64,000 nucleotides of DNA, taken from the NCBI RefSeq assembly GCF_056712565.1, contig NZ_CM160072.1. The stretch is one strand, 5' to 3'. The position numbers were made by a program. Of the stretch, positions 47,501 through 50,500 are shown one piece after another. Each line of letters begins with the position of its first letter. Position 1 is the stretch's first letter.

Positions 47501-50500
47501 CGCTGGGGGTGATTGGCGTGATTTATGAAGCGCGCCCGAACGTGACGGTTGATGTTGCTTCCCTGTGCCTGAAAACCGGTAACGCGGTGATCCTGCGCGG
47601 CGGCAAAGAAACCTGTCGCACTAACGCTGCAACGGTAGCGGTGATTCAGGACGCCCTGAAATCCTGCGGCTTACCGGCGGGTGCCGTGCAGGCAATTGAT
47701 AATCCTGACCGTGCGCTGGTCAGTGAAATGCTGCGTATGGATAAATACATCGACATGCTGATCCCGCGCGGTGGGGCTGGTTTGCATAAACTGTGCCGCG
47801 AGCAGTCGACAATCCCGGTGATCACAGGCGGTATAGGCGTATGCCATATTTACGTTGATGAAAGTGCAGAGATCGCTGAAGCCCTGAAAGTAATTGTCAA
47901 CGCGAAAACTCAGCGACCGAGCACATGTAATACGGTAGAAACGTTGCTGGTAAATAAAAACATCGCAGATAGCTTCCTGCCCGCATTAAGCAAACAAATG
48001 GCGGAAAGCGGCGTGACGTTACACGCTGATGCAGCCGCGCTGGCGCAGTTGCAGGCAGGCCCCGCGAAGGTGGTGGCTGTTAAAGCCGAAGAGTATGACG
48101 ATGAGTTTCTGTCATTAGATTTGAACGTCAAAATCGTTAGCGATCTGGATGACGCCATTGCCCATATTCGTGAACACGGCACGCAACACTCCGATGCGAT
48201 CCTGACCCGCGATATGCGCAACGCCCAGCGTTTTGTTAACGAAGTGGATTCCTCCGCTGTTTACGTTAACGCCTCTACGCGTTTTACCGACGGCGGCCAG
48301 TTTGGTCTGGGGGCGGAAGTTGCGGTAAGCACACAAAAACTCCACGCGCGCGGCCCAATGGGGCTGGAAGCTCTGACCACTTACAAGTGGATCGGCATTG
48401 GTGATTACACCATTCGTGCGTAAATAAAACCGGGTGATGCAAAAGTAGCCATTTGATTCACAAGGCCATTGACGCATCGCCCGGTTAGTTTTAACCTTGT
48501 CCACCGTGATTCACGTTCGTGAACATGTCCTTTCAGGGCCGATATAGCTCAGTTGGTAGAGCAGCGCATTCGTAATGCGAAGGTCGTAGGTTCGACTCCT
48601 ATTATCGGCACCATCAAGAAAATCAATAACTTAGCTTAACTTCTCTAAGAAATTGTATCTTCTGTTATCACTTACAAACGCCTATACGTTGTTATGGGCT
48701 TTGGTAGTTTAACACGTATGGGCGAGTAGTTCCCAGGCTCAACCTCGTAACAAGTTCCTTTGAAGCTGGAAGACGTGCCACCGTCTCTAAACCTTCTACC
48801 AAAACTCTTAGCAAGATGTTCCACACCTGGCGCGGTGTCCAATGATGCTACACGTCGTGAGACGTTGCAGAGGATAAACAGGCTAAATGATGGGAAGAGT
48901 TTTAAGTGCAATAGTGGATTAAAGCCCACCTCTTCAAAACCTAACTTGATCGGGAAAGAATCAAGCTCTAGCACGGTTTCGTCCACCGGAGTACAACGGG
49001 TGCCTGATAAGAGAAGAACTGCTAAGACTTCATAGCTTTTGTGAAAAAGCCCTTTTTAGTGGATACGCCTACGGCGCTTATTTTTTGGTATAACCATCAA
49101 AGGCGCTTTATGGCTCCTATTGTCTTGAAAATGTATCTTTACTTGTATTGTGTTTTATGCGTAGTCTCCCTGTGTAGTATGTAACTTGTTAATTTTCATA
49201 TGAATACAGAGGCAACACGATGAAAAACATTGCAGCTATAAAACGTAATAACCGCAAGATTCACGCTCGTAAGTTCCTGTCTACGCCAGAGGGAAAAGCC
49301 TGGCTAGAGCGAAAGCAACGAGAGAACGAAGAAAGAAAACTCCTTAGTGAGTTGAAATGGCTTAGAGAGGATTTCTGAAAATCTCCAGAACGCAACAAGA
49401 CGCATTCTAACGCTGTTTTCATTGCTTGGTATAGGGATGTATATGTGATGTGTGTTTAATGCGTCTGTGAGCTTGTTTTGTGCCTTATTTTGCATTTTCA
49501 TAATGCAGAAGAGAACACGGAAAACCTTAAAATTAATTATTGGGGTATTTAAGGCTATTTTAAGGGGATTTAAGGGTATTAAACTTGATTTAATTGATTA
49601 AAATATAAACAGATAGCTCTGCATCTTATTGATTTATAAGGTTATTTTTGAATAAAGGTAAATAAAAAATAAATAGCCATAAATAGCTATAAATAGCTAT
49701 AAATACATCTAAATACATATGAATCCCCTCCCTTATGGCTAGATTGCGAGAGGTGCTTAACGCGATTTTTAGCGCCCCCCGATCTGGAAAATCCAGAATC
49801 CCCAAATATCAAGGAGGCATTACGCCTCCTCTTCTTCCTTCTTAATTCGCTGTACCGTTGAAGGAGCAACATTAAAGCTCTCGGCGGTTTTACGCACTGA
49901 CACGCCAGCGGAAAGGGCTTTCTTTATACCTTCCCTATCTACTGCCTTCCCTTTACCACGCTTTGTAGGATTGACGGCTTGCGCTTCTCGTTTACGCTCT
50001 AACATCAGTTCACGTTCACACGTTGCAACTGCCGACAACATCGTAAGCATCATCTTTCCCATCGCGCTTGTAATGTCAGCAATGATTCCTTCTTTGTGAA
50101 ATCGAACAATTACACCTCGATTATTAAGTTGTTCCACTAAGGCAAGAATGTCTAAGGTGTTACGCCCTAAACGATCAAGAGAGTGGACGTGTAAGGTGTC
50201 GCCTTCTCTCAGATAGGATAAACACGCCTGCAATCCTGGACGGTTAGTGTCTTTACCTGACAGCTTATCTTCAAAGACTTTATCAAGCGTTACTCCTGCA
50301 AGCTGGCGATCAGTGTTCTGATCTACAGTGCTCACACGCTTATAACCGATATTGCTCATAAAATCCTCTTAATGTATCGATTTGGCACTACTTCAATGCA
50401 AATGAGTATATCGTATTCATTTGGTCTGTTTCAAGCCTTATAGGTACGGAATATTACACGATTTAGATGTATTCATTTGGTATGCCTAATGGATACACAG

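Follow-up and report, generated by a model that had tools for sequence, protein, structure and literature searches.

The question raised by this locus is what a small serine recombinase gene, set among several families of short repeats, does for the mobile element that carries it. The DNA analysed (hereafter the window) comprises 64,000 nucleotides of contig NZ_CM160072.1 (assembly GCF_056712565.1) and is part of an Escherichia coli chromosome with the gene order frsA-crl-phoE-proB-proA-thrW. The recombinase gene (49820-50359, minus strand) lies in a 12.7-kb island (48615-61359) that is bounded by a 20-bp direct repeat at the tRNA gene thrW; related islands are present in about 700-715 of 5,426 complete E. 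coli genomes (~13%), at thrW or at a tRNA-Gly site. An original prediction had called the product a Hin/Gin/resolvase-type recombinase and had taken four nearby repeat sets to be either res, crossover, or enhancer sites for multimer resolution or the ends of an invertible segment. The recombinase open reading frame (ORF) and all four repeat sets were found where they had been noted, to within 1-2 bases, the coordinates of a set of tandem decamers being one base off. The analysis described below makes it probable that the gene encodes a Tn3/gamma-delta-like resolvase, which travels with its own three-site res and resolves multimers of the island to monomers.

The recombinase and its predicted res site

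The gene encodes a 179-aa small serine recombinase of the resolvase type (ORF and Pfam PF00239) with both a catalytic and a DNA-binding domain. Residues 4-128 match PF00239 (Resolvase) with E=1e-33, and the C-terminal helix-turn-helix (HTH) is represented by matches to HTH_7, HTH_38, and HTH_23 at residues 141-175, which score slightly under the curated cut-offs. The gamma-delta and Tn3 resolvases align to residues 2-175 (E~1e-28) and Gin aligns with E~1e-26; the gamma-delta alignment reaches residue 175, covering the DNA-binding domain. The catalytic motifs are intact, with R8 and S10 in YKRVST and the D-R-L-G-R motif in LDRLGR, and equivalents of D67, R68, and R71 are present. The assignment to the Hin/Gin/resolvase group is thus borne out by both the Pfam match and the three alignments. 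The ratio of nonsynonymous to synonymous divergence (dN/dS) is 0.03-0.09 in most pairs of E. coli alleles and 0.22 in one (dS 0.07-0.28), and the gene is therefore maintained by purifying selection.

A predicted res site of 123 bp (50374-50496) lies immediately upstream of the gene. It contains six 12-bp half-sites with the consensus GTAtyCATTtGG, starting at 50374, 50413, and 50469 on the plus strand and at 50398, 50436, and 50485 on the minus strand, which pair into three dyads with the layout 28-21-35-3-36. Site I, the predicted crossover site (50469-50496, minus strand; 28 bp), reads GTATTCATTTGG-TATG-CCTAATGGATAC, its spacer being 4 bp long and its central AT lying at 50482-50483. A gap of 21 bp separates it from site II (50413-50447, minus strand; 35 bp), which reads GTATTCATTTGG-N11-CCTTATAGGTAC, and a gap of 3 bp separates site II from site III (50374-50409, minus strand; 36 bp), which reads GTATCGATTTGG-N12-GCAAATGAGTAT and stands 14 bp from the ATG. 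Sites II and III were located by a half-site scan, and site III occupies the same register in the four related loci L003, L012, L013, and L015. Measured from centre to centre, sites I and II are separated by 52.5 bp, equal to five helical turns. The exact copies of GTATTCATTTGG at 50413-50424 and 50469-50480 include the two copies of GTATTCATTTGGT listed in the original prediction, the first being held in site II and the second in site I; this part of the proposal that the repeats are recombination sites has stood.

Allowing up to 2 mismatches, 13 matches to the 12-mer GTATTCATTTGG were found in the window against 6.95 expected, a number reached in 0 of 100 shuffles, and four of the 13 fall inside 50374-50496, in both orientations. 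Two further, degenerate half-sites in res were picked up with a position matrix derived from all six proposed ones. Within 400 nt upstream of the gene, site I is the best 4-bp-spaced dyad not only in the window (10/12) but also in the loci L016 (11/12) and L004 (9/12), and in all three it is located at -129 to -139 from the ATG. The half-site scan and the matrix revealed no second crossover-type dyad in the island. A lone good half-site match (GTATACATTTGG, 53794-53805, minus strand), which has no partner, is found in the 3' end of a Rep-like gene of the island. A degenerate 28-bp site I pattern had five matches in IMG/VR, all in copies of the same island, and none in other viruses, including the phages considered below as possible helpers.

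The comparison set consisted of L003, an E. coli copy with another left flank; the metagenome contigs L012 and L013 (83-84% aa identity) and L015 (69% aa identity); and L004 and L016, the latter a Salmonella 5.7-kb contig, which carry a diverged type-2 allele. In L003, L012, L013, and L015, the upstream similarity spans the interval from the ATG to the outer edge of site I and ends exactly there, and the six half-sites are found at identical offsets between unrelated flanks. The half-site word shifts at all six positions in each lineage, from GTATTCA in the window to GTGTTCA in L015 and GTAGTGA in L004 and L016, a joint change that is expected if one protein reads all six. Relative to L003, res contains approximately 5 differences per 123 bp, compared with a dS of 0.26, and is thus more conserved than synonymous sites. 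The predicted sigma-70 promoter of the gene (50405-50434, minus strand; 10/12 in the promoter scan), with a -35 element TTGAAA at 50434-50429 and a -10 element TATACT at 50410-50405, lies within res sites II and III, and both elements are kept in L012, L013, and L015. By analogy with Tn3, a recombinase bound to these sites would be expected to repress its own synthesis.

The res site of Tn3 is 114 bp long and contains three dimer sites (PMC2602789), and Tn3-type res sites are built of 12-mer motifs whose spacer length varies among sites (10.1101/2021.12.07.471667). The general rule, also seen in the island SGI1, is a site I of 28 bp, a distance of about five turns between the centres of sites I and II, and a site III beside the start codon (PMC12217951). 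The present system resembles Tn3 and gamma-delta in the protein fold and catalytic motifs, in a res that immediately precedes the gene, site III being the nearest to it, in the promoter embedded in res, in a 28-bp site I whose 4-bp spacer has AT at its centre, and in a gap of 21-22 bp between sites I and II. It differs in that the proteins are only ~35-40% identical and that sites III (36 vs 25 bp) and II (35 vs 34 bp) and the total (123 vs 114 bp) are longer. To judge from its layout, the site probably works like a Tn3-type res with a different accessory-site geometry. Its host also differs, being an integrative island at a tRNA gene, without transposon ends; a Tn3-family transposon, in which a DDE transposase and terminal inverted repeats of roughly 38 bp would accompany the res module, was rejected as an explanation, as no transposase ORF was found in the island and the recombinase gene with its surroundings forms a cassette of only 0.69 kb.

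SGI1 is a helper-dependent integrative island, and experiments have demonstrated that its Tn3-like res system, once restored, rapidly eliminates island multimers (PMC12217951). Like the system described here, SGI1 (gene S027 and the restored res) has a dispensable Tn3-like res-resolvase pair; its boxI is 28 bp long, the spacer is 22 bp, the centres of boxes I and II are 51 bp apart, and boxIII lies beside the start codon (PMC12217951). The res system of SGI1 is often inactivated in natural variants (PMC12217951). In contrast to the present system, the helper of SGI1 is an IncA/C conjugative plasmid, boxII is 30 bp and boxIII 25 bp long, and the likeness considered here is one of layout. Given this analogy and the single res per island, multimer resolution was proposed as the function. 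In the proposed mechanism, recombinase dimers would bind to sites I-III, and two directly repeated res sites would be synapsed and recombined, with crossover at the central AT of the 28-bp site I, which would convert multimers to monomers. The substrates may be the excised and replicated island, transfer concatemers, or tandem chromosomal arrays.

The cassette and the flanking repeats

The terminator hairpin, gene, promoter, and res form a cassette of ~0.69 kb (~49803-50496). Its left end is marked by a GC-rich hairpin, GGAGGCATTACGCCTCC (49812-49830), which was detected as a terminator by the terminator scan and overlaps the stop codon. Homology stops at 49803 in the comparison with L012, where the context is unrelated, and at 49811 in the comparison with the recombinase-less island L002. 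In L002 and in L009-L011, the segment 49812-50486 (the gene and most of res) is swapped for a filler of ~385 bp that contains no ORF. The cassette slot is thus a mosaic with three alternative fillings (rec1, the diverged allele rec2, and the filler) and two alternative left blocks (A and B), and four combinations were observed, namely A+rec1, A+filler, B+rec1, and B+rec2. Among the complete E. coli genomes, the rec1 cassette is present in 156, all copies being chromosomal and 155 of the 156 full length and in one piece, the filler in 334, and rec2 in roughly 200. As about half of the islands lack the cassette, its function is dispensable for the island.

The filler (13352-13734 of L002, 385 bp) is 95-100% conserved in the 334 E. 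coli genomes, has a left-terminal hairpin and a near-consensus promoter (TTGACT-N17-TATAAT) facing the repeat region, and had no Rfam match. The possibility that it is a decayed recombinase gene was rejected, as no blastx similarity was found. The recombinase-less islands retain a degenerate outer half of site I (GTAATCCACTAC vs GTATCCATTAGG; window 50487-50496 vs L002 13735-13745), and the breakpoint between the window and L002 is located only a few bases from the centre of site I, suggesting that the cassette exchange may have involved the crossover site. Relatives with 50-69% identity are often found on 3-11 kb contigs, a size that would fit small plasmids; no close DNA relative of the cassette (>80% identity) was found on plasmids.

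Three of the four repeat sets in the original prediction lie outside res. The tandem decamers (49670-49719) comprise five 10-bp units (TAAATAGCCA, TAAATAGCTA, TAAATAGCTA, TAAATACATC, and TAAATACATA) and were reported by Tandem Repeats Finder (TRF) as arrays at 49669-49705 (96% match) and 49700-49718. The ATTT(T)AAGG-type units occupy 49543-49580 (period 10, 3.7 copies in TRF), and an imperfect palindrome, ATTTGGCA...TGCCAAAT, is located at 50553-50591, with arms at 50553-50560 and 50584-50591 and a hairpin z-score of -2.5 to -3.1. Of the 15 arrays to which TRF gave a score of 50 or more in the window, 13 fall in 49543-52083; this clustering and the enrichment of GTATTCATTTGG therefore argue that the repeats are not due to chance.

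These three sets could be read as accessory, enhancer, or extra res sites, given that the gene is no more than 700 bp away and that the reverse complement of the decamer (GTATTTA) and the word ATTTGG resemble parts of the half-site. However, none of them passes the half-site matrix threshold, and they assort independently of the recombinase. The block of decamers and ATTT(T)AAGG units is present in the recombinase-less islands L002 and L009-L011, whereas L003 lacks it despite carrying the same recombinase allele, and neither repeat occurs beside homologous cassettes in other contexts. The palindrome is likewise kept in L002 and does not occur in the DNA flanking the cassette in L012, L013, and L015. 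The decamers, the ATTT(T)AAGG units, and the palindrome are therefore independent of the recombinase, and a role for them as recombination sites is most improbable. The comparison of flanks places the palindrome in the island backbone and not in res. Together with a motif described below, the ATTT(T)AAGG units and the decamers constitute a conserved non-coding module of ~290 bp (49525-49811, defined by alignment), which is near-invariant from ~49525 to 49760, even in L010, despite its diverged left flank.

Several further features of these repeats were recorded. The decamers are present in five copies here and in four in other islands, one of which has a 1-nt insertion, indicating that the copy number varies by slippage. 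The decamers contain TATAAATA, a T4-type late-promoter consensus, twice, and late genes of phage rV5 carry a motif similar to TATAAATA (PMC3606486); that the decamers might act as T4-type late promoters is offered as a lead only. In a scan for 10-bp A/T-tract periodicity, the ATTT(T)AAGG area ranked in the top five of ~6,400 windows and the decamers were unremarkable; no curvature is claimed. On the other side of the gene, the segment 50900-52100 is ~1.2 kb long, contains no credible ORFs, and lies upstream of the Rep-like gene. It holds at least seven repeat families (D1-D7), including a 23-25-bp unit in seven copies with the palindrome ACAGAATTCTGT and other units of 21-35 bp in direct and inverted orientation, and may be an origin with iterons or a binding array for helper proteins.

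The thrW island and its copy of a phage genome end

The left limit of the island is the tRNA-Thr(CGT) gene thrW (48538-48613, plus strand; tRNA call), at whose 3' end the last 20 bases form the attL core ACTCCTATTATCGGCACCAT (48595-48614, plus strand). The attR core is the identical 20-mer at 61340-61359 (plus strand); homology among island copies stops at 61360, the position up to which the window is nearly identical to strain GPEC548. The first gene is a conserved 52-aa ORF, followed by the recombinase gene, a region of ~2.3 kb that is nearly ORF-free and rich in repeat families, and then small ORFs. Beyond these are the genes for an HTH or replication-initiator-like (Rep-like) protein (53176-53829, plus strand; PHROG replication initiation families, E=8e-11), a major-head-like (capsid-like) protein (55929-56957), a tape-measure-like protein (57263-59092), a baseplate/tail-like protein (59126-59839), and the tyrosine integrase of the island (59919-61253, minus strand; PHROG 1 integrase, E=5e-33, and RefSeq annotation). 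The virion proteins of the island are thus limited to capsid-like, tape-measure-like, and baseplate-like ones; family matches revealed neither a terminase nor a portal. A search for known RNA families in 48400-61500 detected the tRNA alone.

Excision of the island would create an attP junction predicted as TAATCGAGTGTTTTACTCCTATTATCGGCACCATCAAGAAAATCAATA; no such junction was found in IMG/VR or the JGI metagenomes, a result that is uninformative and not negative evidence. The related island L003 is inserted in tandem with CP4-6, and such tandems occur occasionally. Beyond attR (61360-64000), the window differs from GPEC548 and contains the truncated N-terminus of a P4-type integrase (61513-61851) and a MarR-like ORF (62286-62810, minus strand), which suggests that a second element had integrated in tandem, using the regenerated att site, and that this segment is what is left of it. 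Far outside the island, a 100-bp unit repeated 3.2 times (33512-33829, 92% match) with REP-like palindromes (GCCGGATAAGGCG...CGCATCCGGC) is an array of ordinary E. coli intergenic repeats.

The segment 49738-49810, between the decamers and the recombinase gene, is a copy of the boundary of the direct terminal repeat (DTR) of phi92-like phages, with a single-copy match in 62 Stephanstirmvirinae records. The invariant core of this motif consists of TG.TTAACGCGA plus CAAATATCA, and the motif is found at positions 318-363 of phage records that start at the physical genome end. In phi92, the left DTR is annotated as 1-343, and the boundary 343/344 falls in the core, between GGTGCT and TAACGCGA, mapping to 49757/49758 of the window. 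The WPEC4 genome begins and ends with the same 328 nt, and this DTR stops inside the same core. The motif in the window, variant A, matches phi92-like phages, and islands with the alternative left block hold a diverged motif, variant B (8740-8822 of L004), that matches phAPEC8-like phages. Among named strains, BEN2908 has variant A together with the recombinase, APEC O1 has the filler, and O104:H4 has variant B together with the type-2 recombinase. The motif is predicted to fold only moderately well (z about -2.5), with a pairing that variant B does not conserve, and an RNA gene at this position is therefore not favoured. A motif, ACACCCCC, that appeared to be common to the 23-bp repeats of the island and the phage end region was dropped, as its copies were too few and it was absent from L002.

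Other parts of the island also resemble these phages. The tape-measure-like protein is 31-36% identical to its Stephanstirmvirinae counterparts, and the segment 52947-53530, which takes in a small ORF as well as the 5' portion of the Rep-like gene, shares 89-99.6% identity with genes, annotated as hypothetical, of muut, inny, Mt1B1_P17, and BI-EHEC, which are phages of roughly 146-151 kb. This level of sequence identity indicates that the island and these phages have recently exchanged DNA.

Some phage satellites carry copies of the packaging signals of their helpers, such as the P4 cos and the pac or cos of PICI and SaPI. Several features expected of a satellite are present in the island, namely an integrase, att sites, a Rep-like protein, and an incomplete set of virion genes. 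It resembles P4, PICI, and SaPI satellites in its length of ~12.7 kb, its own integrase, its replication-type protein, its few morphogenesis genes, and a cis sequence of apparent helper origin; unlike in those satellites, the helper-like sequence is the DTR boundary of ~148-kb virulent myophages, the Stephanstirmvirinae. On this basis we tentatively suggest, short of regarding it as probable, that the islands are an undescribed satellite family parasitising Stephanstirmvirinae, in which the ~290-bp module would be a packaging site and the resolvase would cut concatemers, whether packaged or replicated, to unit circles before integration. The 49525-49811 block would then be a putative packaging region, and the phage-end copy may serve as a cut point for the terminase, its two versions possibly corresponding to two helper genera. 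No paper describing a satellite of these phages was found in the literature searched.

Weighing the alternatives

If the recombinase were a Hin/Gin-type invertase, it would flip a repeat-bounded segment, for example that between 49699-49714 and 50461-50476, or one reaching 52700. The protein is, like Hin, Gin, Cin, and Pin, a small serine recombinase of similar length, its similarity to Gin almost equals that to the resolvases, the matching family PHROG 125 is named 'DNA invertase', and a 16-nt inverted repeat with 15/16 matches brackets the gene. Invertases require two inverted 26-bp sites and a Fis-bound enhancer. Here, however, the upstream layout is that of one three-subsite res and not of a single 26-bp site, and it has no inverted partner: the left repeat arm contains no dyad site, the partner half matches at only 4/12 positions (manual comparison), site I is the single dyad of its type in the island, and the half-site at 53794 stands alone. 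Moreover, a synthetic inversion junction was found in 0 of the 5,426 genomes, the best coverage (56%) representing the normal arrangement, and the cassette is in one piece in 155 genomes. No inversion isomers were thus found in these genomes, the idea that the repeats are the ends of an invertible segment fails, and inversion is as improbable a function as is a recombination role for the flanking repeats.

The occurrence of the cassette in only half of the islands, the free combination of blocks and fillings in a mosaic slot, and the presence of close relatives on small, plasmid-sized contigs in unrelated contexts would all fit a passenger res-resolvase module, acquired from a plasmid or transposon into a permissive slot and playing no role in the life cycle of the island. 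This alternative appears unlikely, although it is the strongest of those considered: two alleles with ~60% aa identity share their position and orientation in diverged islands at both thrW and tRNA-Gly, the gene is under strong purifying selection, and res changes less than synonymous sites. A further possibility derives from phage P1, in which lox adjoins pac. Site I of res is ~725 bp from the phage-terminus motif, and the island, at 12.7 kb, is far smaller than a helper genome of 148 kb, making the packaging of concatemers plausible; island DNA delivered by a helper capsid, in several copies or terminally redundant, might then be cyclised and cut to unit circles by res in the manner of Cre-lox. 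Tn3-type resolvases, however, need negative supercoiling and both res sites on one circle, and linear DNA is a poor substrate (10.1101/2021.12.07.471667). The island's own capsid-like protein suggests small capsids instead. A Cre-lox-like role is thus very improbable.

Several points also weigh against multimer resolution by a Tn3-type system. About half of the related islands do without the recombinase (334 have the filler), and both the replication of the island and the formation of multimers, the proposed biological substrate, are presumed. The binding of the recombinase to res and recombination there are likewise predicted from sequence. The dyads of sites II and III are weak (7-9 of 12), as those of accessory sites usually are, and their assignment is less certain than that of site I; site III, at 36 bp with a 12-bp spacer, is unlike the 25-bp site III of Tn3 with its 1-bp spacer, and in the type-2 allele (L004 and L016) it apparently consists of direct, not inverted, half-sites. 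A res/crossover site for multimer resolution is nevertheless the best reading of the sequence, and this part of the original prediction is retained, limited to the two GTATTCATTTGGT copies among the repeats.

The resolution system itself is of a known kind, with its res now defined, and the surprise is the adjacent copy of a phage genome end and what it implies for the island. The res described here is a clean, computationally defined site, and its lineage-specific half-sites might serve as orthogonal recombination tools. Phages of the phi92-like and phAPEC8-like groups are used in phage-therapy cocktails. If the islands are indeed satellites of such phages, a parasite of therapeutic phages would be hidden in ~13% of E. 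coli genomes, the family would provide an example of a satellite exploiting direct-terminal-repeat packaging, and the copied genome end would give direct access to the site that the terminase of the Stephanstirmvirinae recognises, which is still undefined.

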